Shown: positions 13,441 through 31,751, counted from the first letter of the stretch. The stretch is DNA of 64,000 nt from a virus (IMGVR_UViG_3300044712_000538:1-64000), one strand, 5' to 3'. Program-made: numbers and translations. The notes: a model not told the origin generated them from the letters alone.

Positions 13441-13573
13441 GTTATTGGGTTTGGTTTTGTGGAATAAAAAGGGCCCCGCTATGGAAATAGAGGGCCGTCA
13501 ACCATTTCTAACTTGTGAGTCCGAAATAAAGGTACGAGAGTGCTTTGAAATTTCAAAGGGCTGGATTGTATTT

Positions 13574-13831: not shown

Positions 13832-14015
13832 GTGTGTCGATTTTTCGGTTTTTAAGTTTACGTTCTGTGACTTGCTTCTTGTGGCATTCTATGCATAGGT
13901 GGAAGCGGCGCATCTTGAGTTTGCCGAAACGGGTATCTTTCTCCCAATAGAATCCGTATTTAGCATCCTTGTGCTGTCCGCAATATTTACAGTAATGAAG
14001 GTTTTCCATGCTCAA
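13818..14015 (-). CDS. small zinc-finger protein
   Basis: CKYC...CIEC. Confidence 0.5.
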   Translation of the reverse strand: MSMENLHYCKYCGQHKDAKYGFYWEKDTRFGKLKMRRFHLCIECHKKQVTERKLKNRKIDTHGKD

Positions 14016-14018
14016 TGG

Positions 14019-14780: not shown

Positions 14781-14971
14781 TCCGGATAGATTTTAACGGC
14801 GCTGGCGGGGGCCCCTGTGTATTTGCAAATGAGGTCCTTGGCTTCCTGTTCGGTCCGGGCGCGCATGGAATACCGGTCGTATCCCCTGCCTCCGCATTTT
14901 ACTGTTGCCCGCCACTTTGGATCGGTAGCTGGAGCGCCGGTGTGAACGAATTTGAACGTGTCCTTTTTCAT
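14777..14971 (-). CDS. hypothetical protein
   Basis: 64 aa, translationally coupled. Confidence 0.5.
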   Translation of the reverse strand: MKKDTFKFVHTGAPATDPKWRATVKCGGRGYDRYSMRARTEQEAKDLICKYTGAPASAVKIYPE

Positions 14972-14973
14972 AA

Positions 14974-15231
14974 TTACCAGTTGAAAGATTTCAGGGTTTT
15001 AAGGACAATTTTTTCTGAATTTGTAAGCGGAAGGTTTTTGGGGCTTTCCATTTGCTTTGAAAACTTTCCATCCTCCAGCACTTCGTCGGGGCTAAATGGC
15101 TGCGGGCTTACTATGTCTGATTCATCAAGGTCCCGGTTGTCGTAATCGACAATTACAAACCGAACATCGTCGGTATTTGCGGAGATAGATTGGATCAGTC
15201 CTCCTTCAATCGTGATCAATACTTTGGTCAT
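14974..15231 (-). CDS. hypothetical protein
   Basis: KVLITIEGGLIQ...IVDYD. Confidence 0.7.
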   Translation of the reverse strand: MTKVLITIEGGLIQSISANTDDVRFVIVDYDNRDLDESDIVSPQPFSPDEVLEDGKFSKQMESPKNLPLTNSEKIVLKTLKSFNW

Positions 15232-15323
15232 GGCCTGTGGTTTTAAATTTCAATCAAGATACTGTACGGTCCCTGTACTTCCAAGGGAATTGTGATGGGC
15301 GGCAATATGCCGGGATGAGCGGT
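15232..15323 (-). promoter_or_regulatory. promoter with two 20-bp-spaced direct repeats
   Basis: plus-strand GATGGGCGGC at 15294 and GATGAGCGGT at 15314; -7-like TATCTTG on the minus strand. Confidence 0.65.
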
Positions 15324-15601
15324 TAGGGGCGATATGGGCCCCCTACCTTAACGGTCTGCCCGGTAGCGGATACCACGGCATACCCATCAATTTTAAGGCG
15401 CTCATAGTCCTGGCGGATCATGTCATGGACCTGTTGATACTCGGGCTGGTGGTCGTATATCTTCATGACGAGCGGGTTAAACGTAATCCTGCCTATTTCT
15501 GCATAGCTTCCACGGTGTTCTTTCCGGCGATCCGTGTAAACGTATGCATTCGGATAGGTGCCGCAAAATAGGTCCGTAGCGGGGTTAAATGGCGGTGTCA
15601 T
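15323..15601 (-). CDS. hypothetical protein
   Basis: 92-aa ORF. Confidence 0.6.
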   Translation of the reverse strand: MTPPFNPATDLFCGTYPNAYVYTDRRKEHRGSYAEIGRITFNPLVMKIYDHQPEYQQVHDMIRQDYERLKIDGYAVVSATGQTVKVGGPYRP

Positions 15602-15921
15602 GCTTCCTGAAAATTTAAAAGTTGAGTAAGTACAAAGCTTTCCAGTATGTCGAAAAATCCTCCTTCCTCAACGTCCGGATCGTCACGGAGTCTGCGGGTA
15701 AATTCCATAGTACACTCCATGGCGAAAATCCACATTCCTCCCTGTCCATGCTCGGCCATTACATCCAGCAGTTTGCATTCCAACGGATCGAGTTCTTCGC
15801 CTATCTTCTTAGCGGCAATATCACCATGTATGTCTTCTATGATGGCAACAACGTGGTAGTGGGTTTCCAGAAAATCCTCCAGTCCGTGCTTGCTGATAAG
15901 GGCTATTTGTTCCTGTGTCAT
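15598..15921 (-). CDS. hypothetical protein
   Basis: FLETHY.VV...GQGGMW..A...T.EF. Confidence 0.65.
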   Translation of the reverse strand: MTQEQIALISKHGLEDFLETHYHVVAIIEDIHGDIAAKKIGEELDPLECKLLDVMAEHGQGGMWIFAMECTMEFTRRLRDDPDVEEGGFFDILESFVLTQLLNFQEA

Positions 15922-15925
15922 GGCG

Positions 15926-16147
15926 TCATTGTTTGGTGGCTTCTAATTTTTGAACGAGGTGAATCCAAAGGTCGTCGGCTGACATTGCCGGGAGTTTATT
16001 CTCACGCAGCCATGCGTTATACAGTTCGGAAAGTACATTGTGGTGGCTCTCGTCCGTATCGTTCCACAATTCGGTAAACTGCTCCAGAATGATTAGCTGG
16101 CGGTCCGTGGTCTTATGCTTGGCTCCTTTTTCGTAATCGTATGGCAT
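15926..16147 (-). CDS. hypothetical protein
   Basis: start MPYDY; WL.EN.LP.MSADDL. Confidence 0.55.
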   Translation of the reverse strand: MPYDYEKGAKHKTTDRQLIILEQFTELWNDTDESHHNVLSELYNAWLRENKLPAMSADDLWIHLVQKLEATKQ

Positions 16148-16163
16148 GGTAGGTATTTTTAAA

Positions 16164-16183
16164 GGGCAGGGTTTCCCCTGCCC
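16164..16183 (-). terminator. hairpin / weak terminator
   Basis: GGGCAGGG-TTTC-CCCTGCCC. Confidence 0.5.
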
Positions 16184-16194
16184 CTGTTGGTTAA

Positions 16195-17433
16195 TCAAAG
16201 GTGGGATGAGGCCCAATTATCTGCGGCTTGGTCAAGGGATGCATCCAGCATGTCCCCGCCATGGTCATGCTCAGGTTGCTGGTCTGCATCGGCTCCTGTC
16301 CAGCCGAGGGTGCGCAGGTAGTTCCGGGTGGCTGGCGTGTCCTTCTTGTACCACAATTTCCCGAAGCGGCTCCACCGAAAACCGTTCCTTTTCAAGCTAT
16401 CCAGTACGTCCGGGTCCGGCTTCCGGGCGAACTTTACTTCAATCCCTCCTTTTGCCGGGTTGGAAGTTACCAGTAGTTCACCGGCCGGGTGTTCTTGTGG
16501 TGCGGGGATTGGTACTACCGGCTCCTGATTGGCGAAATTTTCTCCCATGGCTCCGGCTCTGGCTCCTTCCTTTAAGTCCACCTTCCTGATCCTCCATCCG
16601 GTGCCATGGTATCTTTCCGTGGATGAGATCCCGAAAGAGATTTCCCGGTTGCGGATTTCAAACCAGTGCGGGGTGTCGGCTATTTCCTCCATGTTCCGGG
16701 CTGCCTGTTTCAGTTCGTTCATGTCGTTCCGTGTGTACGGGGACCATGCGAGGAGGGCTCGGCGTTCCGTGCGGGTGGCGAAGTAGTCGCTATACAGGTC
16801 GCAAGCATCGACTTCGTAGGTGGCCACAATGGCGGCCGCTGCCCATGACGGGCGGGAGTCCAGGATTTCATTCTGCCGGGTTTCCTGTGCCAGTCGTTCC
16901 GAAGCTTCCACGATCTGCCGCTCCTGCCGTTCCCGTTGTTGGGCATCGGCCAGTGCGTTGGCTTTCTGGATGATCTCCTCCATCTCTTCCGGTGTTGCCT
17001 GAGTGTGGCTCTCATAGCTGGCCTTCACATCAATGGCCAATCGCTGGTACTTCTCACCGGCTCCGTCGATCTGGATGCAGGGAAAGCCGCCAAAACTGTT
17101 CCGCTGGCTGGATTCTACTACATAGAGGTCCCCGTTTTTCTCGAACACATGGCCGACCGGGGGGATAAACCGTACCGGGAGTTCGCCGGCCTCCAGTTTG
17201 GCGTTGAAATTGCGGATGCCTTGGTTCAAAGCTTTCTGGAGTGCGGCCTCCGTTGCCCGGCTGCAGGGAGTCCGGAGAAGCAGGATGTTCGGGTCGGAAA
17301 AGATGGCGATGGACCACATACCGTCATGGCTGGTGCCACCGGCTGCGGTTACGTCGATGGTCTGCGTTCTACTGTTTTTGCTGGCATAGATTTCCCAGTC
17401 ATACCCGTTTACTGATACTTTGTGCTTTAACAT
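16195..17433 (-). CDS. multi-domain hypothetical protein (mobile-element leading-region type)
   Basis: D..SDYF......LLAWS..TR.D..EL..AA domain plus C-terminal GIEVKF..KPD..V...LK.NGFRWS....WY domain. Confidence 0.7.
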   Translation of the reverse strand: MLKHKVSVNGYDWEIYASKNSRTQTIDVTAAGGTSHDGMWSIAIFSDPNILLLRTPCSRATEAALQKALNQGIRNFNAKLEAGELPVRFIPPVGHVFEKNGDLYVVESSQRNSFGGFPCIQIDGAGEKYQRLAIDVKASYESHTQATPEEMEEIIQKANALADAQQRERQERQIVEASERLAQETRQNEILDSRPSWAAAAIVATYEVDACDLYSDYFATRTERRALLAWSPYTRNDMNELKQAARNMEEIADTPHWFEIRNREISFGISSTERYHGTGWRIRKVDLKEGARAGAMGENFANQEPVVPIPAPQEHPAGELLVTSNPAKGGIEVKFARKPDPDVLDSLKRNGFRWSRFGKLWYKKDTPATRNYLRTLGWTGADADQQPEHDHGGDMLDASLDQAADNWASSHL

Positions 17434-17461
17434 GGTCTTATGGTTTTGTGTGTGAAAAATG

Positions 17462-17491
17462 AAAAAGAAAAGGACCGGCCGGGACCGGTCC
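17462..17491 (-). terminator. intrinsic terminator
   Basis: GGACCGG stem with a T-tract on the minus strand. Confidence 0.55.
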
Positions 17492-17501
17492 ATGGGCTAG
17501 G

Positions 17502-17750
17502 CTACCAGCTAATTTCCTCAATATACTCCGGGGTTACTTCGGACAAAATCTCGTTAATCTGGCGCTTCATTTCCTTCTCGTCGTTATTGCTGACGATGGC
17601 CTCCTCAATCTCTTCGCTGAGGTTGGCCATTTCGGACGTGTCCGGGAGGTCACTGAGGGATACTCCCATAATCCGCTGAACGTGACGATTGAGGAGGGTC
17701 CGGGCGGTTCCGTATGCTCCGTGTTTGGCTGCGTGTTCTTTGATGGTCAT
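17502..17750 (-). CDS. hypothetical protein
   Basis: 82 aa; G.SL.DLPD. Confidence 0.65.
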   Translation of the reverse strand: MTIKEHAAKHGAYGTARTLLNRHVQRIMGVSLSDLPDTSEMANLSEEIEEAIVSNNDEKEMKRQINEILSEVTPEYIEEISW

Positions 17751-17843
17751 GGTACTGTGGTTTTAAATTTGATGTAATATAGGGCACGGATTAAGGCAAT
17801 ACAAGGGAATTGGGATGAACGGTCTGGTAAAATGATGAGCGGT
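17751..17843 (-). promoter_or_regulatory. promoter with two 20-bp-spaced direct repeats
   Basis: GATGAACGGT at 17814 and GATGAGCGGT at 17834; same layout as 15232-15323. Confidence 0.65.
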
Positions 17844-18046
17844 TAATGAAGATCAAATACTTGTCTTTTGGTTACCTTTTTGCACATTTCAATCTCCCTG
17901 CAGTCCACGATGTCCGGTTCTGGCGGGTGCGGTCCTTCCACGATTTCAATGGCTAGTTTCTCGGCCGCCTGTTGGTCCTTGGCGGCTACATTGAACGTGT
18001 AAATCTTGGTATCTCTTACGGTGACTTCAAAAAATTGCTTGGCCAT
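17843..18046 (-). CDS. small hypothetical protein
   Basis: FEVTVR......V.A.D...AE..A. Confidence 0.55.
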   Translation of the reverse strand: MAKQFFEVTVRDTKIYTFNVAAKDQQAAEKLAIEIVEGPHPPEPDIVDCREIEMCKKVTKRQVFDLH

Positions 18047-18050
18047 GGTC

Positions 18051-18617
18051 TTAGTGGTTTAACTGTTTCAAATAATGGTGTTGGTCCATGTCGTCCATCA
18101 TGTCTATGATCTTCTTTAGTTCTGCCGGGCTAATCGGATTTGATTTTGGCTTTTCCGTTTCCTCCTCCGGCTGGCTCTCTGGAAATATGTCGTTTCTGTG
18201 AATGAACGCTTTAAAGAAAAGTTTTTCCCGCTCCTTTTGCTCCTTCTTGAATCGTTCCATTTCCTTCTTGTATGCCTGAGCATAGAAATGAAACTTGGCT
18301 TCAATCTCAACGTGCTGGCTCGGGGTTACTTCAATCTCTATGCTCCGGAACTTTCCCCGCTCGTTCTTCCGGGAATAGTAGGTTTTGATCCTTACCACGG
18401 TCCGCACAACTTGGAAGAATAGCGGCACCATGTCCGTGGGGACCTTGTACCATTTCCCGGTAGCGTGTTCATCGTCTATGTCTTCCATGGATATTCCGTG
18501 CTTTTCCATGGCGGCGTATAGCATCCTTTTTGCGTTCTCTTTCTCTCCTCCTTCTCCCTTATCGGCCAAAGCTTTTAGTTTCCTGAGGAGGTCCAAAATG
18601 CGGTTGTTGTCGGTCAT
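18051..18617 (-). CDS. DUF2786-like protein
   Basis: ILDLLRKLKALA.KG.GGEKENA..ML...M.KHGI. Confidence 0.75.
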   Translation of the reverse strand: MTDNNRILDLLRKLKALADKGEGGEKENAKRMLYAAMEKHGISMEDIDDEHATGKWYKVPTDMVPLFFQVVRTVVRIKTYYSRKNERGKFRSIEIEVTPSQHVEIEAKFHFYAQAYKKEMERFKKEQKEREKLFFKAFIHRNDIFPESQPEEETEKPKSNPISPAELKKIIDMMDDMDQHHYLKQLNH

Positions 18618-18844
18618 GGCTGACTGATTTTGCTCGTTTGTAAAATGATGGCTTTGCCGGTGGCGGTAGTCCTGACTGATTTCGGTCCGCACATCGCAGC
18701 CCCCAAAATGAGGGATACGATGATCCAAAAAATGCCGGGGTGGCTGGCTGACTGTCTGAGCGGGTGCTGGTTGTACTCTTGGCGGGTCATGGTCCGGTAG
18801 TTGATGGGTCGGGCGTGTGCTGGTTTGCGGTCTTTGTTCTGCAT
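18614..18844 (-). CDS. small membrane protein
   Basis: one TM segment IFWIIVSLILGAAM. Confidence 0.45.
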   Translation of the reverse strand: MQNKDRKPAHARPINYRTMTRQEYNQHPLRQSASHPGIFWIIVSLILGAAMCGPKSVRTTATGKAIILQTSKISQP

Positions 18845-18854
18845 GGTTATGGTT

Positions 18855-19139
18855 TTAAAGATTTTCGGCTATCCATATCTCCCGGTAGCTGGAGGACCGG
18901 GGCAGGGCGGTGGTGTGTTTGGCATCATTCAGGTCATGGGCAAAGGTTGCACGAATGGCGTGTTGGGCGTTGAATCCTTGGGACTCCCTTTCCATTCGGA
19001 TGGCGAACAGGTAAAAACCGGCCAGTCCTTCAAGGGATTCAGGTCCCTTGTGGTCCTCCATGGTCATTAGTTTGTATATCCATGTGGCTCTGTCAATGGT
19101 AAATGGGTTGCGGTCTGCTAAAAATTGGAATGCGTCCAT
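18855..19139 (-). CDS. hypothetical protein
   Basis: 94-aa ORF. Confidence 0.6.
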   Translation of the reverse strand: MDAFQFLADRNPFTIDRATWIYKLMTMEDHKGPESLEGLAGFYLFAIRMERESQGFNAQHAIRATFAHDLNDAKHTTALPRSSSYREIWIAENL

Positions 19140-19150
19140 GGTTGTGATTT

Positions 19151-19405
19151 TTAAAGTTCGGAAAATTTGCTTTCTGCGTCGACCAGTTCTTGAGCAAGTA
19201 CGTCTTTCAGTTCCCGGAAAAATCCCTCACAAAGGTCTTCCCATATCTGGTCTCCGGTGGCGTTCTTTACGATCCCGGAAATGCCGGGAGGAAGGTTTAA
19301 ATGGTTGGCGGGTTTCCTTATCTCGCTGAGGGCATGAAGTGCCTCTTTTATCTTTCCCGCCTTGTAGATAAAAAAGCTTGCTGCGTTGTACTGTTCGTTG
19401 GTCAT
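19151..19405 (-). CDS. hypothetical protein
   Basis: MTNEQY...L...E..F.EL. Confidence 0.65.
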   Translation of the reverse strand: MTNEQYNAASFFIYKAGKIKEALHALSEIRKPANHLNLPPGISGIVKNATGDQIWEDLCEGFFRELKDVLAQELVDAESKFSEL

Positions 19406-19431
19406 GGTAGTGTGTTATGTGGTGGAAAATA

Positions 19432-19449
19432 GCGGGGATTGCTCCCCGC
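19432..19449 (-). terminator. hairpin / terminator
   Basis: GCGGGGA-TTGC-TCCCCGC. Confidence 0.5.
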
Positions 19450-19456
19450 CTGTTAA

Positions 19457-20062
19457 TTAGATTAATCCTTCGTCGGCAAAGGAATAGTATCCGGTTCCTT
19501 GGCCTCCTACGATGATGTGATCCAGCAGCCGGATGTCGAAGTAGCGGGCGGCCTCCCGTATCTTAATGGTCAGTTCTTCATCTGCCCGGCTCGGTTTCAG
19601 GCTCCCGGACGGGTGGTTGTGGCAAAGGATCATGGAAACAGCGTTATGGGATAATGCCCGGCGCAGGATCGTGCGGGGATCGGCCACGGTCCCGGTTATT
19701 CCTCCTTGGCTGGTCTTCTCAATGGCCATGACTACATTGGCCCTATTGAGGTATGCAACGTGAAATTCTTCCACCTGCAAATCATTCAACCGGGCCTGAA
19801 AATGGCGGGCCATGGATGCAGCCCCCGTAATCGGGTCCACCGGTGCGGTGTCCTGCATATCTGCCCGGCGGCTAAATTCGATTATGGCGGCTGCACGGTG
19901 GGCAATTTTGGCGGGTATGCCATTGAGGGTCATTCCATCATATCCTGCCCGGCGAATGGCAGAAACGGTCGGGAAAACAGCAAAGAGGGCATTTGCATCC
20001 TTCTCGCCTAAAATAGCGGCAATTACTTGCCGGTCGGTCCTAAGGTCTGTGCTGGTGAACAT
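19457..20062 (-). CDS. radC: RadC family JAB-domain protein
   Basis: EEFHVAYLN, GGITGTVADPR, HNHPSG...PSRAD, LLDHII. Confidence 0.95.
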   Translation of the reverse strand: MFTSTDLRTDRQVIAAILGEKDANALFAVFPTVSAIRRAGYDGMTLNGIPAKIAHRAAAIIEFSRRADMQDTAPVDPITGAASMARHFQARLNDLQVEEFHVAYLNRANVVMAIEKTSQGGITGTVADPRTILRRALSHNAVSMILCHNHPSGSLKPSRADEELTIKIREAARYFDIRLLDHIIVGGQGTGYYSFADEGLI

Positions 20063-20065
20063 GGT

Positions 20066-20263
20066 CTATTTGGTTTTGATGAGTTCGCAATAAAATGAGA
20101 GGTCCTCCGGGTCAATGCGGCCAAACCGGACGCTGGAATAAAAGCCTTGGCGGTAATATTGCTCTTTCCATTGCTCGAAGTAGCGGATCGCTGCCCGCTT
20201 GGTCTTGAAGTCTTCCATCCGGATCGTGAATCCATCAGGCGAAAGAATGTTAAACATGGTCAT
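20066..20263 (-). CDS. hypothetical protein
   Basis: ILSPDGF.I...W..QY..QGFYSS. Confidence 0.65.
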   Translation of the reverse strand: MTMFNILSPDGFTIRMEDFKTKRAAIRYFEQWKEQYYRQGFYSSVRFGRIDPEDLSFYCELIKTK

Positions 20264-20325
20264 TGGGTTTGTGGTGAAAATTGCCCGGAATTTCACCGGG
20301 CTGGTCTGGCCGTCCGTCCTCCCGG

Positions 20326-20712
20326 TCAATATTCGGAAGGTAATAACATCACTCCATCGGCAAAGTAAAACCGGATACTGCCATGGGGAAAATCGGTGAA
20401 TCCGATACGCTGAGTGACAATAGGATCGCCACCGTTCCCGTCCGTGCATATGGCCGTTATTCCGTCCGTGGTCTTGCTCCTCTTAAAATCCCATACTTGG
20501 AAATGTTCGGCCCTAACTTTCGGGTTAGTCTGGTGGCTCACTACTACATCGATCATCCAAAATGCACCCATGGTAGCGGCCACATATTGCACTCCGTCCG
20601 TGTGCATGGCTCTGCGGGTCCAATGGGGATAGTAGTGATCGGTGCCGGTGAATTGCTGGAGGGCTGGCTCGTCGTTTGCATGGCTGGTGGGCCTCTTGGT
20701 CTTTGTCAACAT
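20326..20712 (-). CDS. DUF6876 family protein
   Basis: LQQFTGT..YY.H.....TDGV.Y.A...GAFW.ID...FQVW...DGN...Q.I.FTDFP...LLPSEY. Confidence 0.85.
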   Translation of the reverse strand: MLTKTKRPTSHANDEPALQQFTGTDHYYPHWTRRAMHTDGVQYVAATMGAFWMIDVVVSHQTNPKVRAEHFQVWDFKRSKTTDGITAICTDGNGGDPIVTQRIGFTDFPHGSIRFYFADGVMLLPSEY

Positions 20713-20738
20713 GGTATTTGGTTTGTGTGGTTAATGGC

Positions 20739-20954
20739 TCAATTATCTTTGCTGGTCAATGGCTTGTTGCATACATGGCAATATTCCTGCTCCTCTTCAT
20801 AATCCGGATGGTCCTCCTTATAACTGAAACAGTTACCACGGGTGTCTGGCCCATCGCCTAAATTGCCATACTCTTTTATGGCCTCTGCTTTGGTCGGAAA
20901 ACATAAACGGCAAAAATCTAGGGGATCGCTTTCGCTGGTATAAATTCTAGGCAT
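20739..20954 (-). CDS. small Cys-rich protein
   Basis: DFC..CFP...HPDY....Y.C..C.KPLT..DN. Confidence 0.65.
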   Translation of the reverse strand: MPRIYTSESDPLDFCRLCFPTKAEAIKEYGNLGDGPDTRGNCFSYKEDHPDYEEEQEYCHVCNKPLTSKDN

Positions 20955-20981
20955 ATACTTTGGTTTTTGGTTTGAAAATAG

Positions 20982-21000
20982 GGCGGGATTTTCACCCGCC
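20982..21000 (-). terminator. hairpin / terminator
   Basis: GGCGGG-ATTTTCA-CCCGCC. Confidence 0.45.
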
Positions 21001-21030
21001 TGATCTGGCTTCCATCCGTCCGGGAAAGGG

Positions 21031-21324
21031 CTAGAATAGCCCCCGGAATTTGTTTACTGACTGGTCGGCTATCATAGCCTCCAACTGGTTAATCTTCGCC
21101 TGTTGCAAATCAATCGTTTCACGCAGGGCGCTAATGGCTCTGTTTGCGTTGTCGAACTTCTTTCCCATATCCATCAGGTCCTCGGCGGCTTGCTGCTTGC
21201 CTTCTTCGCTGCCGTCTAACATAATGAGGACGTAAATACCGGCAGCCTGTTCCCATGTCGGGGTCAGGTCGATTGCTTCTACCATCTGCCCGTTGTACTC
21301 TACCATTTTCGTGTTGTGTCCCAT
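21031..21324 (-). CDS. hypothetical protein
   Basis: IDLTPTW......Y...L..G..EGK..A...L.DM. Confidence 0.65.
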   Translation of the reverse strand: MGHNTKMVEYNGQMVEAIDLTPTWEQAAGIYVLIMLDGSEEGKQQAAEDLMDMGKKFDNANRAISALRETIDLQQAKINQLEAMIADQSVNKFRGLF

Positions 21325-21396
21325 GGTCGTGGTTTTGTGTTGTTGTAAATTTCCACTAAGATATAGCGCAGGATAGGCCATGTCAAGCTATAACTG

Positions 21397-21466
21397 GACA
21401 AGCGGCAAAATAACTTGATGAGCGGTAAATGCCAGGGATGAGCGGTAAACGGGTATGATGAACGGT
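21397..21466 (-). repeat. four 10-bp direct repeats with a 20-bp period (ACCGCTCATC consensus)
   Basis: GACAAGCGGC 21397, GATGAGCGGT 21417, GATGAGCGGT 21437, GATGAACGGT 21457; -7-like TATCTTAG near 21355-21362. Confidence 0.85.
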
Positions 21467-21469
21467 AGG

Positions 21470-22105
21470 CTATTTCCGGGGCTGCATCATGCGCATAAAT
21501 TCGGCGCCTGCCATTAGGATCAGGGCGGCGTTTGGGTCCTTGGCCGTGGTCTGGTGGCTGGCCTGCTCCATGGCTCGGGTGAACTGGTCAATGGTCCCGA
21601 TGATCTTCTTGGCTATGGCCTGCCCTATTGGGGATAGCATCCATTTATTCTTTGCTGGATGCAGGAAGTATTGCGGCCATTGGCGGCGAAGGCTATACAT
21701 CCACCCGCCACCGTATTCTGGCCTCAGGTTAAATAGTGCGGACCATTGCCGGCCTGTTGCCGGTCGTCCTTCGTTGGCCTGCTGGGCATAATGCAGGGCC
21801 AATAACAGGCGCATGAATTGGGAGCGGTGGCCGATGGTCCTGCACATTACATCATGCCAAAGGAAAGCAGCGGATAGATAAGCGAGGTAATGGGATCGGT
21901 CCCGCTTGGTGTTTCTTCTCCCCCGCCTGAGCGGTTGGCCCGGCCATGGCGACCGGCCGAGGTATCCCGGCTGGCCCGGCTGGCGGGCTTGCCTTGGCCT
22001 CTTCTCTGGCTTCCTTGGTCCCTTGTCCTTTGCTCCCTTGGGTCTGCCCTTGGGCCTTTTCGGTGCCGGTTTCCCTCCGGTTTCTGCCATGTCATTATGT
22101 CCCAT
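21470..22105 (-). CDS. putative DNA-binding protein (basic GRPKG N-terminus plus wHTH-like domain)
   Basis: KGRPKGAKDK AT-hook-like motif; helical C-terminal domain. Confidence 0.5.
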   Translation of the reverse strand: MGHNDMAETGGKPAPKRPKGRPKGAKDKGPRKPEKRPRQARQPGQPGYLGRSPWPGQPLRRGRRNTKRDRSHYLAYLSAAFLWHDVMCRTIGHRSQFMRLLLALHYAQQANEGRPATGRQWSALFNLRPEYGGGWMYSLRRQWPQYFLHPAKNKWMLSPIGQAIAKKIIGTIDQFTRAMEQASHQTTAKDPNAALILMAGAEFMRMMQPRK

Positions 22106-22155
22106 TTTTAGAGGATATTCAATAAAACGCCAATATTCTGAAATCAGCGTTATAA

Positions 22156-22174
22156 CTGATTGATTATCAATCAG
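22156..22174. repeat. 19-bp palindrome
   Basis: CTGATTGAT-T-ATCAATCAG. Confidence 0.85.
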
Positions 22175-22178
22175 GAAA

Positions 22179-22206
22179 TCTGCTAATAATTTCTATTATG
22201 TTAAAT
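22179..22206 (+). other. dif: dif-like XerC/XerD recombination site
   Basis: TCTGCTAATAA-TTTCTA-TTATGTTAAAT; right arm identical to the canonical XerD arm, 6-bp spacer. Confidence 0.8.
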
Positions 22207-22716
22207 AGGATGTAGTTCCCCGCTATGACTCCTGCCCGGCCGGTGGCCATGTCCTCCCTTCCATTTGTCTTCCCTTTTGCCCCTATATATGGCAGCGTGC
22301 AGGGTGCTGGTCGGCAAGTTTTTTGGCCATCGAAAATGGACCCCACCCGGTTGCAGTTTTCGCGTTTCCCTTTCGCTGCGCGGCCCCCGGCTTTTTACGC
22401 GTTGGTGCGCCAGGTCAGCTACGGACTTCCGGGACCGTTTTTTTAATACTGGTTACAAATATGAATCTTTTCGTTGAAAAACAACCCCACCCGGTCTGAT
22501 ATTTTGGGTCCCCTTTTTGTGACAGTTTGTGTACGCGCCTGTTTTGGCTGGAATCCAATACCCGTAAGAGATACGGGTAGATCTTTGGTTCGGCTGCTGC
22601 AAGGGAAAATGTTACATATCCTTATTTGCCTATGGGCAAAAAAAACCCCCCTGGGGAGGGGGGAAATGATAGTGATCATTACTGAACACGACCGACTGCT
22701 TGAACAAAATTATTTT

Positions 22717-22747
22717 TTTGGTAGTTACCAGCAAAATTTTATTTTCG
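22717..22747 (+). promoter_or_regulatory. Bacteroidota sigma70-type promoter
   Basis: TTTG-N19-TATTTTCG (consensus TTTG-N19-21-TAnnTTTG). Confidence 0.5.
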
Positions 22748-23234
22748 TCGCCCGGCTGGAGTTTATCGGGACAAATATCTACGTTTTGGCCAGTCGCAGA
22801 CGCTGTAAAAAGGGTGGTTCCAAGCAGCAAGGGCAGTCCGAGGGAAGAAGCCCGGAACCTGGGGATGGGAAACCCCATAAGTCGCTTCCGAGTAACGGCC
22901 CCCCATTGGCCGGGACCCCACACTATACGCGACCGACTGCCGGCGACGCATAGCGGGAGGACTGCCGCCGGTTAACCCCCGGTTTTAGGCATCGTCCTGT
23001 CCCACCTACCGCTCCCTCTTGCCAGTAACACTCCCTACCGAGTAGATCAAAAAAAAAGATTCTCCACATTGCTTGGAAATTTAAAAGTGCGGTCGTATTT
23101 TGCATGCGCTCGTCCGGGGAGAGCATTACAAGTGACCCGACCAGGGGGCAGCGGAAATTAACCCACTATTTTTGGGGTCTGGATTTTTGAAGTACCCGCT
23201 GCCCTCTTAATTCCAAACCACAAAACGACAGATT

Positions 23235-23621
23235 ATGTCTGCAGATTCATCAGTACGCGACACTCGCGGGTTTTTCCCGGAAGAACAAATTGCTTATGTA
23301 TGCCACTCCGCGAACAAGGCGTGGTGCGATCTCCATGGAGATTTTTCTCAAAAGCGTTGGGAGGATGCCGAGGAATGGCAGCGCCAGTCGGCTATTGCCG
23401 GGGTAAAATTCAGGCTGGAGAATCCCGGTGCCAGCCCGAAGATGCAGCATGAAGCCTGGCGGCAGGCGAAAGCGGCTGACGGATGGGTGTACGGGGAAGA
23501 GAAGGACGCGGAGAAAAAGACGCATCCCTGCATGGTCCCGTATGCTGAACTGCCCGAATTTCAGCGCCGGAAGGATGCGCTTTTCGCGGCTATCTGCAAT
23601 GCTTTAACCGGCGAGATATGA
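23235..23621 (+). CDS. RyR-domain protein
   Basis: HEAW...K.ADGW.YG..KD..KKTHPCMVPY.ELP..QR.KD. Confidence 0.9.
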   Translation: MSADSSVRDTRGFFPEEQIAYVCHSANKAWCDLHGDFSQKRWEDAEEWQRQSAIAGVKFRLENPGASPKMQHEAWRQAKAADGWVYGEEKDAEKKTHPCMVPYAELPEFQRRKDALFAAICNALTGEI

Positions 23622-23797
23622 CGGACGAGCAAAGGGCGGTGCTGGCCGCTGCGGTTTCCGAAATCCGGCATAAGGTGGTGGAGGCTTTTGAGAACTGCGG
23701 CGCCAAAGAGAAATACTCTGCCATCATTTCCGACCAGTTTACCGGGAAATGGTTTCGGCTGACATTTGAAGAGGTCCCCCCAAATACTACTGCTTGA
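23618..23797 (+). CDS. small hypothetical protein (59 aa, not in the ORF track)
   Basis: MTDEQRAVLAAAVSEIRH...; coupled to both neighbours (ATGA, TGATG). Confidence 0.55.
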   Translation: MTDEQRAVLAAAVSEIRHKVVEAFENCGAKEKYSAIISDQFTGKWFRLTFEEVPPNTTA

Positions 23798-24171
23798 TGG
23801 CTTACGTTCACGATGCCTCCGAGGTTGATCCGCTATTGAAGGAGCGGCTGGCTGCAGAAGTGGCCCGGCTGAAACGGCTCCATCCGACCTGGAAGCGGGC
23901 ACGGCTTTATCGGAAGGCCGGGGAGCGGTACAATGTAAATCTGGTTATTGAACCCTCAACCAAGGAAAAACTGACTTATGGAATTGCTGGACAACCGGGT
24001 AATGATACGCCCAATCAGAAAGGAAAAGATAACGGCCGGGGGGATCATAATCCCGGAAACGACAAAAAACATGAACCTATCGGTGGGGGAAGCCCTGTCG
24101 GTGGGGAAGACGGATTGGGTAAAGGAGGGGATGAAGATCTTGTACCTGGAGAACACGGGCAGCAAGATTGA
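23797..24171 (+). CDS. hypothetical protein
   Basis: basic N-terminal half; tail overlaps groES. Confidence 0.45.
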   Translation: MAYVHDASEVDPLLKERLAAEVARLKRLHPTWKRARLYRKAGERYNVNLVIEPSTKEKLTYGIAGQPGNDTPNQKGKDNGRGDHNPGNDKKHEPIGGGSPVGGEDGLGKGGDEDLVPGEHGQQD

Positions 24172-24250
24172 CTGGAAGGGAGAGGTCGTCCAGGTTGTTT
24201 TCGAGGATGACGTTATTGCCATCGTGGATGACCCCGATGCTATTTTCTAA
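23978..24250 (+). CDS. groES: co-chaperonin GroES
   Basis: LDNRVMIRP...KITAGGIIIPET...G.ALSVG...VKEG.KILY...EDDVIAIV. Confidence 0.9.
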   Translation: MELLDNRVMIRPIRKEKITAGGIIIPETTKNMNLSVGEALSVGKTDWVKEGMKILYLENTGSKIDWKGEVVQVVFEDDVIAIVDDPDAIF

Positions 24251-24266
24251 CCATAAAAAATGATCT

Positions 24267-24557
24267 ATGCTTACTGATGTGATCGACTACTCAAAAAAAA
24301 ATGCGCTCGGCAATTCAAATCTGAATGGCCCTGAGCCGCCAGAAATGTCGGATTCTGACATGAAACTGATCGAAGAAATTGCGAATTTGATTTATGGCCG
24401 TGGGCCCGATGAAGGCAACTGGCTTTTCGAGAAAATTGCTCAATCCATTTTGAGGATGAGAGAAGAAGAAATTAAGCGACTGATAGCTGGCGTTCAAAAA
24501 GCAAATGAGCAAATCCGCATACTGGAGCAATCTTGCGAACTGCTTGGAAAACGGTAA
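24267..24557 (+). CDS. hypothetical coiled-coil protein
   Basis: 96-aa ORF. Confidence 0.55.
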   Translation: MLTDVIDYSKKNALGNSNLNGPEPPEMSDSDMKLIEEIANLIYGRGPDEGNWLFEKIAQSILRMREEEIKRLIAGVQKANEQIRILEQSCELLGKR

Positions 24558-24573
24558 AAAAATGTTATTTTTG
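24544..24573 (+). promoter_or_regulatory. Bacteroidota promoter upstream of the tail operon
   Basis: TTG-N19-TATTTTTG. Confidence 0.55.
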
Positions 24574-24606
24574 AATCCCAACAGGTCAAGTTGGTTTTGT
24601 GGTTTC

Positions 24607-24637
24607 GGGGTACGTTTGGTCGCGTACCCCTTTTTTT
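24607..24637 (+). terminator. intrinsic terminator
   Basis: GGGGTACG-8nt-CGTACCCC-T7. Confidence 0.8.
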
Positions 24638-24655
24638 ATTCCAAAATTTATTGCC

Positions 24656-25537
24656 ATGGTACATACACCAGTTGATTACTGCCTTGTGAAGATTGACAGG
24701 GCTTTCCAGGACGAGATTATTACCGAGGGTGGCGTTAAGTTCTTTCTCGATACGTCATACCACCCTGAACATCATGCCACCATTACCGGGGAGCTGGTAT
24801 CGGTCCCGAAACGGCTTGGGCCGGATTACCGCCAGCAGGGCAATTTCGTGAACATGGAGGCTGGCGACAAAATCTGCTTTTCGTATCTGGTTGTGTTCGA
24901 CCGGGGCTTTGATGATACCGCGAAGCATTTTTACAAGGTCGAGGAGATTGAGGGTGTGATGCAGCTATGGGTGAACAATTCTTTCGAGAAAATCCGGATC
25001 ACCCGGTTTGATGATATGGTGGCCGGGGTTTATACGAATGAGGCCGGGTTGCTGGTGGACGGCATCCAGCACAAAGGGCACCGTGCATGGGATGTGGTTC
25101 AGGCATGGCTTGGAAAATTCAGCCTGGAGGGAAGCGCCATCATAAACTACAACAATGCCCTTGAAATTGACGGAGATGTGTACTGGCGCTGCGACTGGCG
25201 GTATGTGTTTTTTAAAGTGGATCGGCTTGTGAGTGAATCTGGCGAGCAGCTTCGGCAGGAGATCACCATGGCACCGGGATACTGTCTGGTGTTCCCGGAA
25301 TCTCGGCAGACTGAATACCAAGGAAGGATCGAACTCCTGCAGCCGGTGCTTTCAAATTACACGGCTGAAAGTGCCGGCCGCGTCATCGCCAACGGACCGA
25401 CATTGTGGGGCCGTAAAGAGTACGGATTGAAAAATGGCGACAAGATCTTGTTCGATAAAAACTTCGCTGAAAAGTATGTCATAAATGGACAGGAAGTGCT
25501 TATTTTGAAGCATCGCTACATTATTGCGAAACTGTGA
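24656..25537 (+). CDS. GroES-like double-domain protein (crAss-like)
   Basis: ITEGGVK.F.DTSY...G.LVSVP...GDKI.F at the N-terminus and LK.GDKILF...Y.INGQE...LK...I at the C-terminus. Confidence 0.65.
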   Translation: MVHTPVDYCLVKIDRAFQDEIITEGGVKFFLDTSYHPEHHATITGELVSVPKRLGPDYRQQGNFVNMEAGDKICFSYLVVFDRGFDDTAKHFYKVEEIEGVMQLWVNNSFEKIRITRFDDMVAGVYTNEAGLLVDGIQHKGHRAWDVVQAWLGKFSLEGSAIINYNNALEIDGDVYWRCDWRYVFFKVDRLVSESGEQLRQEITMAPGYCLVFPESRQTEYQGRIELLQPVLSNYTAESAGRVIANGPTLWGRKEYGLKNGDKILFDKNFAEKYVINGQEVLILKHRYIIAKL

Positions 25538-26199
25538 TGGATCTAAAATTTCTTCACGACTTCCTGAATTTCATAGCTGACAAAGAGATGGGCGGCATGA
25601 TCCCGCATGATGAGATTGATATGGCTCTTCATGTCACCAGCATTCAGCTATTCAACGACTACAAGAAGGTGTATGACCTGAGCCAGGACGCGAAGGATGC
25701 GCTTTCTCCGTTCATGCGAAAGAAGCAATATACCTCTTCCGCAAAATGGGAAGTTCCGCAAGATTGCGGTTTCATTCTTTCCGCGATCCCTCAATTCTAC
25801 AATAACGCATTGGGTAAAAACGTGTACGGCGTAAATCGCCTGATTACCGAAACTGAGTTTGCATCGCGGATGAACTCCCAGGTCCGGCCGGTGTCGGCCA
25901 CCAAGCCGATATGTGTTCAGGAATGGGGCGAGGAGAAGCAGGCCGTTGTTTGGTATCCTGCAGGAGAATATTCCGGGACCATTTTTTACCTAAAATATCC
26001 CACCAAGCCAAAATACGTTTTCACCGTCAATGAAACGACCAGGAAGGAAACGTACATAGAGGGGAAAAGCACGACATTCGAGTGGAGTGAGGCTGACATA
26101 AACCGGATCATCTACCGGGCGGCACCGATCCTGGGCTTAACCATTGATGACAATGCCCTGATCCAGTATTCCATGCAACGTAAAATGGAAAATGCATGA
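25537..26199 (+). CDS. putative tail tubular/ring protein
   Basis: FIADKE.GG.I...E...A....QLF..Y, YLKYP..P pattern; position before the muzzle gene. Confidence 0.6.
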   Translation: MDLKFLHDFLNFIADKEMGGMIPHDEIDMALHVTSIQLFNDYKKVYDLSQDAKDALSPFMRKKQYTSSAKWEVPQDCGFILSAIPQFYNNALGKNVYGVNRLITETEFASRMNSQVRPVSATKPICVQEWGEEKQAVVWYPAGEYSGTIFYLKYPTKPKYVFTVNETTRKETYIEGKSTTFEWSEADINRIIYRAAPILGLTIDDNALIQYSMQRKMENA

Positions 26200-26828
26200 C
26201 AAGGTATTATCTGGCTGAACAAGTCATACTGTCGCTCAAAGGGGGGAAATACCACGTTTCTTCCTCCATTGAGATTGATGATGTGATCGCGTACATGCGG
26301 ACCATCATGCCGGGGATCGTCAAGCAGGAGTGGTTTCAGATGGCCAATGCCCCGGAAGGGGAAACGCTGCCGCAAAATCTGGCCCTGTCCCTGCATGAGA
26401 ATATCCCGGTCGAGCCGAAGGGGAAACGCTGGATCTCAAAATTGCCGGTTATGCCGGTATTCCTGCCCCGGAACATGGGCGTGTTTGAAATTTACAACCC
26501 GGACGATCCGGACTGTGTTTACATCCCGATCCTTCCGGGCCTGTGGACCAGCTTCGTGAAAGACAAGCTGATCTCCGATGCCGGTGGCCAGATTTTCTAT
26601 GAAACATACGGCAACATCGTGGAGTACAAGGTAAATCCGAAGGTGAACGCGGTAAGCATGAAGCTGGTGATTCAGGATATTTCATCGTATAGCGATAATG
26701 ATCTCCTGCCGATTTCGGCCGATCATGCCAAGATCGCCATCGACCAGGCGTTTCAGTATTTCGCCAACCAGCGGCCCCCGGCCCCAATCTCCGATCCGAC
26801 AACAGACACTCAATTCCGTAGGCAATGA
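26196..26828 (+). CDS. putative tail ring/connector protein
   Basis: coupled ORF in the tail module. Confidence 0.5.
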   Translation: MTRYYLAEQVILSLKGGKYHVSSSIEIDDVIAYMRTIMPGIVKQEWFQMANAPEGETLPQNLALSLHENIPVEPKGKRWISKLPVMPVFLPRNMGVFEIYNPDDPDCVYIPILPGLWTSFVKDKLISDAGGQIFYETYGNIVEYKVNPKVNAVSMKLVIQDISSYSDNDLLPISADHAKIAIDQAFQYFANQRPPAPISDPTTDTQFRRQ

Positions 26829-27568
26829 GTTTTATATCGATTGACTATATCGCATCAAAATGGCTGGTGGACCGGCGATACCCGAAGCACTGGTATGTCG
26901 ATGCCATCGGCTATATTTCAAACTGGCTCCGCGAATCGCAGCTTCATTCGCTGCCGATGATCGAGTCCCATACCATTACCCTGAACTCCTACAAGGCTGG
27001 TCCGCTGCCCTGCGGATACCTGTCGTGGGTCCGGGTGGGCATCAAGGACGGACAGTTTATCAAGCCGATTGCTGGCCGCCAGGGGTTGATCAATACCGTC
27101 AACACGGACGAAAACGGCAATAAGGTTCCACATGGAACATCGGAGATTACCGAGGAGGAAGGATACCGAATGTACTGGCTGGAGAATTTGGGGACCTACG
27201 GGGAAGATCTCGGCCGGCAGTACGGCGGCAGCGGGGATGATACCGGCCTTTTCAAGATCATGAAGGAGCGGAACGAGATCCAGATGGTCGAAACTTACAC
27301 GGAAGATACCGTGTATATGGACTGTCTGGTGTCGCTGAACAATGCCAAATTTTTCTCCAAAATCGACGAAATGTGCCTCCCGGCCGCAAAGTCGTTCGCT
27401 GACTGGCAGCATGAGCGCAACCGGAAGACGCGGAACGAAACCGTTGTGAGGGAAGCTGAGGCCCGCTACCGCGAGCATATGCGTATCCTCCGGGCCAATA
27501 TGTTCGACTACGGAATGGCCGACATTATCAATATCTGGTATCAAAGCGTAAAAGGGTCGCCTAAATGA
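26825..27568 (+). CDS. putative tail ring/connector protein
   Basis: LP.GY.SWVRVG motif; directly before the muzzle gene. Confidence 0.55.
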   Translation: MSFISIDYIASKWLVDRRYPKHWYVDAIGYISNWLRESQLHSLPMIESHTITLNSYKAGPLPCGYLSWVRVGIKDGQFIKPIAGRQGLINTVNTDENGNKVPHGTSEITEEEGYRMYWLENLGTYGEDLGRQYGGSGDDTGLFKIMKERNEIQMVETYTEDTVYMDCLVSLNNAKFFSKIDEMCLPAAKSFADWQHERNRKTRNETVVREAEARYREHMRILRANMFDYGMADIINIWYQSVKGSPK

Positions 27569-30500
27569 TTCCTATAAAACTGAGTTTTTTCAGCGGCGTA
27601 AATAATGATCTGGCCCCTCACCTGATGCAGGATGGCCAGTATATTACCATCGTCAATGGCCGGGTGCTTACCTCTGAAAAGGGAGAAATCGGGGTTGTGT
27701 CGGAACTTGGGGGCCACCTGGCGCTGAGTGCCCCGGATTCCGAGGACAAGCTTGGGGTATGCCTGATTGAGGATGTGGTCCGGCAGCGGGTTATCTGTTT
27801 TCGTTGCGATACGTCCGGCAATGGTAACCACGATATTCTGTGCTATGACGTTTTTGAGCAGACGTTTTATACCATCGCCAAAGGGGCTTACCTGAATTTT
27901 TCAAGCACCCGGCTGATTACCGCGCACATTATCGGGGATCTCCTGTTTTTCAATGACCGGGGCATCAACCCGCCGCGCCGGATCAACATGGAGGCCGGGA
28001 TCAAGACTTTCCATCCCCTGTATCAGACCAGCCAGCGTCCATATGAAAGCCCGGACAAATACACCATCACGGTCCTGCGGAATCCTCCGATCTATCCCCC
28101 GGTGGCCTTGAAAGGGTACAATCCAGCCTTCCCGAACAACTACATTGCTGACCTGGCGCTGCGCTTTTCCTGGAGGTTTATCTACCGGGACGGGGAAGAA
28201 ACGGTTTTCTCGGTGCCGAGCCATACCATGCTCCCCAACGTCAATTCGCGGGACAACCCTACCGATATTTTCAACTATATCAAGGTTGATATTCCCCTCT
28301 TCCAGAAAATCCCGTCCGATGTGGATCTGGTGGAAGTCGGGGTTAAGTTCGACCTGGATACCGGCTTTTTCATCGTCAAGCGGTGGGACCGGTCGGTAAC
28401 GGCTGACGCTACCGCGATCCTGAACCACAATGCCGGTATTTCCGCGCTGACATACGACTTCTACAATGATACGGCTGGCGAGGCCGTGTCTGAATTTGAT
28501 AGCATTGAACCGTACCACGATGTTCCCGAAACCGCACAATGGCAAGTAGTCGGCAGGGACCGCATCTACTACTTGGGGCCGGAGAATGGCAAAGACAAGC
28601 CAGAAAAAACGAGTATGACTACCGAAGCCATCACGGCCACGGTTTCCGATACTCCTCCGGTCCCTCCTGTTTTGCCTACCATGCAGTTCGAGCGCGACCC
28701 GGACGAGCCGGGCGGCGGCGGCTTCCGGTATATGGGGTGGATCTACTTCCAGGGGGCTCCTGTCGCAGGAAGCACATACACCATCATGCTTTCCGACAAG
28801 CAGTACAATGGCGGGAATCCCTTTGTCTGGATGCAGTACACGGTCCAAGCCGGTGATGACCTTGAAACCGTCATTCTGGCCCTGATCAATAGCAACCAGT
28901 TCAGCCCCGTAACCACTTACCCTCAGCCGGTGCCCAATTCCGTTCAGATCTACCTTGAAAGCGTTGTGGACCCGGACATAAACCGGTTTTCCATCACTTT
29001 TCTTGGTGTTTCCGGGGCGGGAGGATCGTCCGGAGGGACCTTATCGCCTGGTACTCAGGTTTTCAAGTCTGGCGCCAGCTTTACACCGAGCATCGTATTT
29101 TTTGATGAAGGCTTGCGGAATTGCGGGGTGATCCCGGCCGCGTCCTTTGATGTTCCTGAGCCGACCTTTGGCCAGACGGTTTTTGTTACCGCTCGGAAAT
29201 GGACCCTTTCCAATCTGGATGCGCTGGCAGAAATTCCTTCCTGGGCAGTTGCGTACGCACCGTGCCTGACCCTGAACTCCCGGACGCGCACCTTCCTGCA
29301 GATCCGGCCGGCAGCCATCGGCTATATCGATAAGGACGGGGCCGATGCTCTGACCTATTCCGATACGCATACCGGCATTTACCTTGATCTGGAATCCCTG
29401 CTTGAATATGGCATGGGGTACACCTATCAGGCCGGGAACAAGGATACCGCCTATATCTGGCTGGATACCGGTGGCCAGCGGTTTACGGCCCGGATCATTG
29501 GTCAGGAAGAAAACCGGGTGATCTGCCAAATGAAAGATCTTGGAAACCTGACCGGCCGGACCGCCAAGGTCGAGATCTTTACTCCATTCCTTCGCCCGTC
29601 CATTGAACTATTTTACGAGCAAGGGGAGGTTTTCCCCATAGCCAATCCCGGCACGGCCAACCGCCAGTACACCACGACGGTCGGTTACTTTACCGGGGAT
29701 GTGCGCCTGTTGAAGCGGAAAGCTGGAGCGTCCGATTACTATGTCGAGGCCATGAATTGCAACGACCTGACATGGAAGGACTGGCACACGGATACCGGTC
29801 GACCGAATACCGTTTTTAAGTCGAAGCGGGAGAAGCGGACCAATATCATCCAGTTTAGCGAAAAGCGGGTGCCTGGCACGACCATCAACGGATTGTCGCG
29901 GTTTTCGGTCGGCAATGAGGCGCTGGTCCCGATTGAGGCGGGTCATATCCAGTGTGCTGCTCTGTCGAACCAGGTTCAGTCCGAAGGATCGGTCATGTTC
30001 GTTATATGCTCCATGCACTCCGTTTCCGTCTACCTTGGCGAGCAGCAGCTACGCGATAACTCCGGGGATACCTATCTTGTCCAGTCCCAATCGGTGATTG
30101 GCACCATGAACGTGATGCGTTTCAGGAGCGGGACAGCCCATCCGGAATCCATGATTGAGCGGAACGGCAATGTCTACTGGTACGACATGGAGAATGCTCA
30201 GGTCTGCCGGTATGGTGGAAATGGGGTATATCCGATCTCGCGGGACGGAATCTCGCAAGATCTTAAAAAGCTGAGTGATGCCCTCCGGGCACTTTCGGAT
30301 GCGGACCTTGAAACAATGGAGCCTGGCCAGCGTCCGTATGTCATCGGCGGGTTTGATCCATACCACAATGAGTACCTGTTGGCGGTCCCGACCGTAAGCG
30401 AAACCGGGTTTGAGCCTCCCTTGGAGGATTATGGCACCGGTACGCTGCCCCCGGCCATGCCCTACCCGTATGCCTTTTACAATGGATTTGGCGGGGTGCT

Positions 30501-31062: not shown

Positions 31063-31066
31063 GCAT

Positions 31067-31750: not shown

Positions 31751-31751
31751 T

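Follow-up and report, generated by a model that had tools for sequence, protein, structure and literature searches.

The phage genome described here carries a 28-bp element (22179-22206) that mimics the dif sites of Bacteroidota and that, judged from its sequence and from its relatives, is probably a working substrate of XerC and XerD, the recombinases of the host; we give this reading a probability of about 0.6. It is the best reading because the match is exact, because equivalent sites recur in four lineages with unrelated flanks, because their conservation is sharply bounded, because the left arms of relatives are host-like and because site and phage-encoded recombinase exclude each other. 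Since the phage is without a recombinase of its own yet carries a close copy of dif, as related lineages do, it probably borrows XerC and XerD from its host. Xer binding, recombination and either of the biological roles weighed below are what we infer from these comparisons.

The stretch of DNA that was analysed (the window, 64,000 nucleotides) covers positions 1-64000 of a virus record that has 75,939 bp and a CheckV completeness of 100%. A 127-bp overlap of its ends indicates a circular assembly.

Sequence and arrangement of the dif-type site

The element TCTGCTAATAA-TTTCTA-TTATGTTAAAT is located on the plus strand and consists of a left (XerC-type) arm TCTGCTAATAA (22179-22189), the central region TTTCTA (22190-22195) and a right (XerD-type) arm TTATGTTAAAT (22196-22206). 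With two 11-bp arms in partial inverted symmetry around a 6-bp spacer (11+6+11) it has the core architecture of dif-type sites, the inner ATAA of the left arm being mirrored by TTAT in the right one. All 11 positions of the right arm are shared with the XerD arm of E. coli and with the predicted dif sites of Chitinophaga pinensis and Cytophaga hutchinsonii; the left arm is the weaker one, as in host dif sites, and agrees with the XerC arm of E. coli in 7 of 11 positions. Directly 3' of the right arm follow the bases AG (22207-22208, plus strand), which are conserved trailing bases in relatives. On the opposite side the four bases GAAA separate the left arm from a perfect 19-bp palindrome, CTGATTGAT-T-ATCAATCAG (22156-22174), built from two 9-bp arms and one central base. 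The earlier note on this DNA had reported just this succession at 22156-22206, a 19-bp palindrome and then a dif-like site with a perfect XerD arm and a 6-bp spacer, and it was found as described.

A search of the window with the core pattern TGCnnATAA-N6-TTATGTTAAAT gave a single match, without a mismatch. About 1e-6 exact matches are expected per genome, and shuffled sequence yields a mean of 0.04 matches with three mismatches permitted. The site is single in the complete 75,939-bp genome, the runner-up candidate agreeing in 16 of the 22 specified positions. The palindrome, also single in the window, is within chance expectation if taken alone (four palindromes with perfect arms of at least 9 bp in the genome, about one in shuffles); the chance of its standing 4 bp from the one dif-type site is about 0.003. 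In the cumulative GC skew the site is not found at an extreme.

Palindrome and site occupy the left edge of a gene-poor stretch of 1.1 kb (22106-23234), in which no open reading frame with a Pfam or PHROG match and no Rfam match was detected; an Rfam search over 20500-24700 gave nothing credible. The earlier description of a non-coding setting at a change of gene orientation holds, with leftward genes reaching from 22105, where the minus-strand block stops, back to 8656 and rightward genes from 23235 on, where the first clear plus-strand gene begins. Because of a strong terminator-like hairpin on the minus strand (22663-22646) the true point of divergence may be nearer to 23.2 kb, in which case the dif-type site would be situated upstream of the gene at 21470-22105, which encodes 211 aa. 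The remaining part of the stretch (22207-23234) is GC-rich and without a credible open reading frame; it includes a plus-strand promoter-like site (22474-22503) and may hold small RNAs or an origin.

The 211-aa protein P0128 is encoded on the minus strand (21470-22105) with its start codon 51 bp from the palindrome. Its N-terminus is basic and contains AT-hook-like GRP motifs (GRPKGAKD, LRRGRRNTK) that are kept in both of its homologues, the only two found among 1.84 billion representatives. The best fold matches of its C-terminal domain are winged-helix regulators of the DtxR/MarR type, with weak Z-scores of 5.5-7.4 obtained from two poor structure models (pLDDT 52); a winged-helix domain is read from these weak matches as probable. 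P0128 is a candidate binder of the AT-rich region of palindrome and site, and the palindrome is possibly an operator for this neighbouring DNA-binding protein.

Neither a tyrosine recombinase (PF00589) nor a serine recombinase (PF00239) was matched in the complete genome at E<=1. The earlier statement that the window contains no integrase can hence be extended beyond it, PF00589 being without a match in the whole genome. A ParA-type partition ATPase is not encoded in the genome either, and no genes for lysogeny, a repressor, excision or partition were recognised in a gene set of which most members, above all the early ones, are of unknown function. Beside the dif-type site no gene similar to RstR or XafT was recognised. 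The early regions further include two HNH/homing-endonuclease-like genes (8656-9051, minus strand; 1551-2342, plus strand) and two DNA methyltransferase genes (9058-9540 and 14019-14780).

Comparison with chromosomal dif sites

Predicted dif sites of Bacteroidota are available from Kono et al. 2011 (PMC3025954, supplement). They comprise AATACTTATAA TTTATA TTATGTTAAAT for Chitinophaga pinensis and TTGTTATATAA TTTACA TTATGTTAAAT for Cytophaga hutchinsonii, whereas the predicted right arms are TTATGTAAAAT in Flavobacteriia and TTATGTTAAGT in Pedobacter (PMC3025954). The spacer TTTATA is common to the predicted dif sites of C. pinensis, Gramella and F. johnsoniae (PMC3025954). A comparison with chromosomal dif of Chitinophagaceae had been recommended in the earlier note: against the predicted C. 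pinensis site the phage element agrees in 11 of 11 positions of the right arm, in 5 of 6 positions of the spacer and in 23 of 28 positions overall. The right arm is therefore exactly of the Chitinophaga/Cytophaga type. Of the spacer (TTTCTA versus TTTATA) the XerC half is the same in both.

The left arm deviates more strongly, and it is likewise the variable arm among host dif sites. It matches the predicted XerC arm of C. pinensis in 7 of 11 positions and the arm of Nitrosomonas dif in 9 of 11, and it departs from the Bacteroidota consensus by AATAA in place of TATAA and by a displaced TGT. In an exact scan no species representative of Bacteroidota combined this left arm with the perfect right arm. 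With the two predicted chromosomal sites (C. pinensis, C. hutchinsonii) the phage site shares the identical 11-bp right arm, a 6-bp spacer starting with TTT and the inner ATAA, and it differs in the outer left arm and in one inner position. The present site is carried by a phage and is not situated at a replication terminus.

Among species genomes the exact pattern TGCTAATAA-N6-TTATGTTAAAT mainly retrieved Nitrosomonas dif, ATTGCTAATAA TGTATA TTATGTTAAAT. Nitrosomonas was nevertheless rejected as the host, given that Shine-Dalgarno motifs are lacking in the phage and that all relatives of its DnaB are from Bacteroidota. The common left-arm core is taken as a natural variant of the XerC arm and not as a host signal. 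Two Nitrosomonas contigs (in the set L004-L013) combine the same dif arms with the spacers TTTGTA and TCTTTG; such variant-spacer sites could mark Xer-dependent elements or plasmid sites.

Affiliation of the phage and its putative host

The earlier note had considered the phage as crAss-like, a label that had to be given up. A tblastn search of its TerL against 50,697 phage records matched no crAss-like record and returned exclusively 87 podophages of Flavobacteriia (about 28% identity), which infect Flavobacterium, Cellulophaga, Tenacibaculum and Maribacter. The nearest cultured relatives are Elemovirus, Pachyviridae and Pervagoviridae, to which these records are assigned. None of the tests run on the sequence placed the phage with Crassvirales, and it is here considered as a tailed podophage of soil Bacteroidota.

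Its host, assigned by indirect criteria, belongs to the Bacteroidota and probably to the Chitinophagaceae. A Shine-Dalgarno motif precedes 2 of 46 genes and the leaders are rich in A and C; the nearest cellular DnaB helicases are those of Flavisolibacter, Polluticaenibacter, Chitinophaga and other Bacteroidota. A TerL with 45% identity to that of the phage is annotated on a 57,085-bp contig in the assembly of an isolate of Niabella terrae, a member of the Chitinophagaceae (GAB3024363.1). Sequencing runs containing the stretch are rhizosphere metagenomes only.

Relatives carrying the site

The closest relative is a 74,025-bp contig (P0131, P0121, P0002), compared by proteins alone, with identities of 87% for TerL, 78% for the virion protein and 65% for DnaB. 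The DNA of the site region matched no record of the phage collection. Relatives were looked for in IMG/VR by the pattern ATAATTT-N3-TTATGTTAAAT, which matched more than 116 contigs. At least 14 of these encode a TerL homologous to that of the phage (E 1e-44 to 1e-65, about 30% identity), and a tyrosine recombinase was found in 0 of the 25 records tested among the listed pattern matches. Three further genomes (G036, G038, G039), found independently by means of the 1165-aa virion protein, carry (T/A)AATCTTATAA TAAATA TTATGTTAAAT. In another one (G093, 73.8 kb), which has the order of replication genes in common with the phage, the site is identical in 28 of 28 positions to the predicted dif of Cytophaga hutchinsonii. 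Equivalent sites are present in related Bacteroidota podophages of at least three other lineages. Between the four site-bearing lineages the flanks and neighbouring genes are without similarity.

The kind of position is alike where the context was readable, with the orientation of the site in relatives inverted in comparison with the present phage. In five near-complete relatives it is found in a gene-poor junction of 1-2 kb between a leftward and a rightward gene block, and in the sole one of them with a detected homologue (G006) a RadC-like gene lies 3-4 kb from the site, as in the present phage. A conservation profile was obtained from ten TerL-confirmed relatives anchored on the site. Their flanks reach 0.44-0.46 bits per position. 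Conserved without being forced by the search pattern are T2, G3, T4 and T7 of the left arm, positions 4-6 of the spacer and the AGA behind the right arm, the latter occurring in 10 of 10 aligned relatives with 2 bits per position. The profile thus delimits a conserved island of about 32 bp with sharp edges. The left arms of the relatives fit the host consensus TTGTnnTATAA, and AG follows the right arm in most Bacteroidota-type IMG/VR sites among the matches listed.

The palindrome does not accompany the sites of the TTTGCA/TTTACA lineage and is absent from the best-sampled site-bearing lineage, and one possible parallel may represent an assembly fold-back. Its role as the binding site of an accessory factor, which the earlier note had put forward, is still a guess. 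Several other candidates were discarded. The motif CAATC, common to the palindrome and to repeats of relatives, was unconvincing, and the recurrent sequence GATAAyTTTAA TATGCG TTATGTAAAAC in relatives turned out to be a coding motif and not a site. Two records retrieved via a 128-aa gene with a RyR domain (L002, L003) are unrelated proviruses with integrases and without a homologous TerL, and a further contig (L014) is unrelated in spite of its similar left arm.

Some peculiarities of these records can be mentioned here. The assemblies of G039 (L171, G039:1-1593), G036 (L176, at its end) and G038 (L159 and L196, at its start) stop 8-65 bp from the left arm of the site, and the contig ends of these three independent assemblies do not overlap. 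A perfect palindrome of 52 nt stands at the start of G039, where it may represent a true hairpin, a physical end or a fold-back of the assembly; in G038 five iteron-like GTTACGAT repeats are located at the opposite end. In five other records (L158, L162, L172, L173 and L156, belonging to G004, G018, G012, G009 and G099) short tetranucleotides in tandem, among them (GGTC)n, (CGAC)n and (TACC)n, and CCAATCG repeats are located within 20-50 bp from the site. Several TerL proteins of the family (P0199, P0225, P0231, P0240-P0245 and that of G010 with 1069 aa) have about 1015-1070 aa and include Hom_end/LAGLIDADG domains, which suggests an intein or the insertion of a homing endonuclease.

Distribution of the site and of tyrosine recombinases

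The site is unevenly distributed. The nearest TerL clade of IMG/VR (40-46% identity) comprises 32 records, of which 13 have a completeness of 90% or more, and contains no exact and one variant site. The G009 clade bears the site, whereas its sisters with about 70% TerL identity are without it. Among cultured phages it was not found in Elemovirus, Baltivirus phi19:3, Callevirus phi38:1 and Gundelvirus (Gundel_1), and it is also absent from the related metagenome-assembled phage record MW202828.1. Conservation in relatives, on which the earlier note had made its proposal depend in part, is accordingly divided: the site is kept within several lineages and absent from others. We therefore regard it as an accessory, lineage-specific feature, comparable to integration modules.

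A complementary distribution was observed for phage-encoded recombinases. PF00589 was matched in 0 of 17 site-bearing relatives, whereas of 36 site-less ones 13 gave a match over the Pfam cut-off and 16 gave one at E<=1e-3. This exclusion, with Fisher p = 0.005 to 0.0008 if shared ancestry is ignored, is no more than suggestive, because the recombinase-bearing records cluster in few clades and the effective sample is small. From these counts the site seems to stand in for a phage-encoded recombinase, and as relatives carry either the site or a tyrosine recombinase of their own, it appears to replace both the recombinase and its target. That several lineages of Bacteroidota podophages with genomes of 57-76 kb have swapped a tyrosine recombinase for a mimic of host dif, with host XerCD acting as the recombinase of lysogeny or of a carrier state, may well be the case, though we would put it at somewhat short of even odds.

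The tyrosine recombinases of site-less relatives have 320-475 aa. Their matches to NCBIfam families are far under the cut-offs, so the class (integrase or resolvase) is not assigned. In five relatives (L470-L474; G106, G111, G105, G110 and G115) the recombinase gene, encoding 340-437 aa, is located within the early/replication block, a location that differs from the position of the present site. A gap of about 200-340 bp precedes the recombinase gene in these five genomes and may hold a target site. The tyrosine recombinase of Cellulophaga phage phi19:3 has 431 aa.

Possible functions of the site

If the established Xer/dif mechanism is taken as a model, the weaker left arm would be occupied by XerC and the right one by XerD, and the enzymes would exchange strands between the 6-bp spacer and that of another dif-type site. 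The partner could be the dif site of the host, leading to an integration of the IMEX type, or the copy on a sister phage genome in a dimer or catenane, leading to monomerisation while the phage is carried outside the chromosome. The use of host XerCD by a crAss-like phage, as originally suggested, is retained as far as a dif-type site of the Chitinophagia/Cytophagia kind in a recombinase-less phage is concerned, with which the comparative data agree; the crAss-like label is not.

The site might have nothing to do with Xer proteins. Palindrome and inverted repeat (ATAAT-N4-ATTAT) could serve phage proteins such as P0128 as elements of an operator, promoter or origin, and the resemblance to dif would be incidental. 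They are situated in an AT-rich part of a regulatory region, 51-100 bp upstream of where P0128 starts, P0128 resembles a DNA-binding protein, short repeats are found beside the sites of relatives, and the site is inessential to the family because it is missing from many relatives. However, a phage-specific operator is not expected to match host dif in its arms, spacer length, spacer and trailing AG in four lineages, and P0128 cannot be the common reader because it has two homologues only. Besides, a canonical Bacteroidota -7 box (TAnnTTTG) was not seen in overlap with the site, and it would be left unexplained why recombinase-bearing genomes are without the site, all of which makes this account improbable in our view. 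We find it much harder still to believe that the element matches dif by chance or is a passively carried remnant of host DNA, functionless in the phage. Its single copy and imperfect left arm would suit such an origin, but the numbers of matches expected per genome and in shuffles (see above) are far too low, the region has no DNA match in the phage collection, and equivalent sites recur as the sole conserved island within diverged flanks of related phages.

If the element is a substrate of host XerC and XerD, two roles have to be weighed, each of them less probable than not, and we lean slightly and tentatively towards lysogeny of the IMEX type, in which host XerCD would recombine the phage site with chromosomal dif so that the 76-kb genome integrates and is later excised in the same way. 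All published cases found of recombinase-less phages with a dif-like site integrate (PMC12715192, PMC3091885). The spacer is of the Chitinophaga type on the XerC side, the site of G093 equals a Cytophagales dif, and relatives bear tyrosine recombinases in place of the site. One TerL relative (P0186, 41% identity) is probably integrated because it is encoded on a 5.68-Mb contig, and IMG/VR includes putatively integrase-less records of about 35 kb, among them one with a provirus flag, whose ends are 17-600 bp away from a dif of the Bacteroidota type. On the other hand, the about 20 site-bearing records of the family include no flagged provirus, contigs of at most 87 kb carry 119 of the 120 best TerL homologues, the 80 best ones in metagenome contigs are all on contigs of at most 68.7 kb, and neither a repressor nor an excision function was recognised. 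A prophage between two good dif sites would, moreover, be prone to FtsK-driven excision. No integrated copy or dif-flanked junction was found among IMG/VR relatives, metagenome contigs and contigs of the source samples, and a first scan of metagenome contigs by virion-protein alignment gave no match. Contigs of one rhizosphere run aligned to 13000-32000 as a single 75,832-bp contig without a joint or loose end at the site, and a second run hardly covered this region; they speak neither for nor against integration because contigs drop rare forms. The competing role, which we judge only a little less probable, is the resolution or unlinking of multimers of a circular phage genome, XerCD acting on two phage sites to turn dimers into monomers as in cer and psi or in the dif of secondary chromosomes. 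It would agree with the plasmid-like layout (perfect XerD arm, weaker XerC arm, palindrome on the XerC side), with the non-coding region and short repeats in relatives, including the five GTTACGAT near the contig end of G038, with the observation that the family is seen almost only as free contigs of genome size, and with the 57,085-bp contig carrying the TerL of Niabella terrae, whose size fits a separate phage replicon. Against it can be held that the phage genome has no partition ATPase, that 72,556 plasmid records (PLSDB) contain no relative, that lytic growth has no need of monomers, that the palindrome is not kept in other lineages and that the identity of some phage sites to host dif would be unneeded. 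A bare dif core is also without resolution selectivity and needs FtsK.

Four records (G028, L044; G067, L076; G092, L134; and the 13-kb fragment G061, L063) end 17-600 bp from ACTACCTATAA TTTATA TTATGTTAAAT and are candidates for integrase-less prophages at Bacteroidota dif. G028, the one record of the four that was tested for PF00589, gave no match and is flagged as a provirus.

Relation to known systems and biological meaning

Viruses that use dif without a recombinase of their own comprise inoviruses, double-jelly-roll (DJR) vibriophages and TLC, all of which integrate, and full-length 28-bp mimics of dif are known among IMEX elements (PMC12715192). With the IMEX group (CTXphi, VGJphi and TLCphi of Vibrio, the dif-type double-jelly-roll vibriophages and the gonococcal genetic island) the present phage shares the lack of an own recombinase and the succession of XerC arm, 6-bp spacer and XerD arm, and also the coexistence of Int-type and dif-type relatives within one virus group. 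In contrast, the known IMEX are islands or small elements of filamentous, tailless or satellite kind, found mostly in Proteobacteria and all documented as integrated at dif, whereas we describe a 76-kb tailed podophage of Bacteroidota of which no integrated copy was found. Proviruses of Bacteroidales microviruses (Alpavirinae, BMV1-7) are integrated and have dif-like repeats that were proposed as XerCD targets (PMC3091885). They resemble the present phage in their Bacteroidota hosts, the missing recombinase and the dif-like sequences, but they are integrated 6-kb ssDNA elements, in contrast with a large tailed dsDNA phage seen only as a free circular assembly.

The plasmid sites cer (ColE1) and psi (pSC101) likewise represent a core for host XerCD that is carried by a replicon other than the chromosome; their XerD arm is conserved and their XerC arm weaker. 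They possess about 180 bp of accessory sequence on the XerC side, which binds PepA together with ArgR or ArcA, and the spacer of cer has 8 bp. The present site has only the 19-bp palindrome, no known accessory factor and no plasmid record. Phage P1, in which Cre/lox resolves dimers of the plasmid prophage, is comparable as a tailed phage with site-specific recombination by a tyrosine recombinase on its own circular genome, and relatives of the present phage, like P1, encode such an enzyme. P1 supplies its own recombinase, whereas the present phage would depend wholly on host XerCD.

The Xer-exploiting viruses in the searchable papers are filamentous, double-jelly-roll, micro- and satellite viruses; tailed phages are not among them, and no report was found for tailed phages of Bacteroidota. 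New here is the family-level picture within Bacteroidota, with dif-type and recombinase-type members. If our reading is true, these phages would be the first Xer-exploiting group of tailed phages with a clear split into int-type and dif-type members. This split within one family can be considered as a natural experiment in which recombination was ceded to the host. A possible mechanism would also be at hand for the poorly understood persistent (carrier-state) infections of Bacteroidota phages. If the site works, abundant podophages of soil and freshwater Bacteroidota that look virulent by their genes could covertly integrate or persist as circles, and the prediction of their lifestyle would change because the tools rely on integrase genes.
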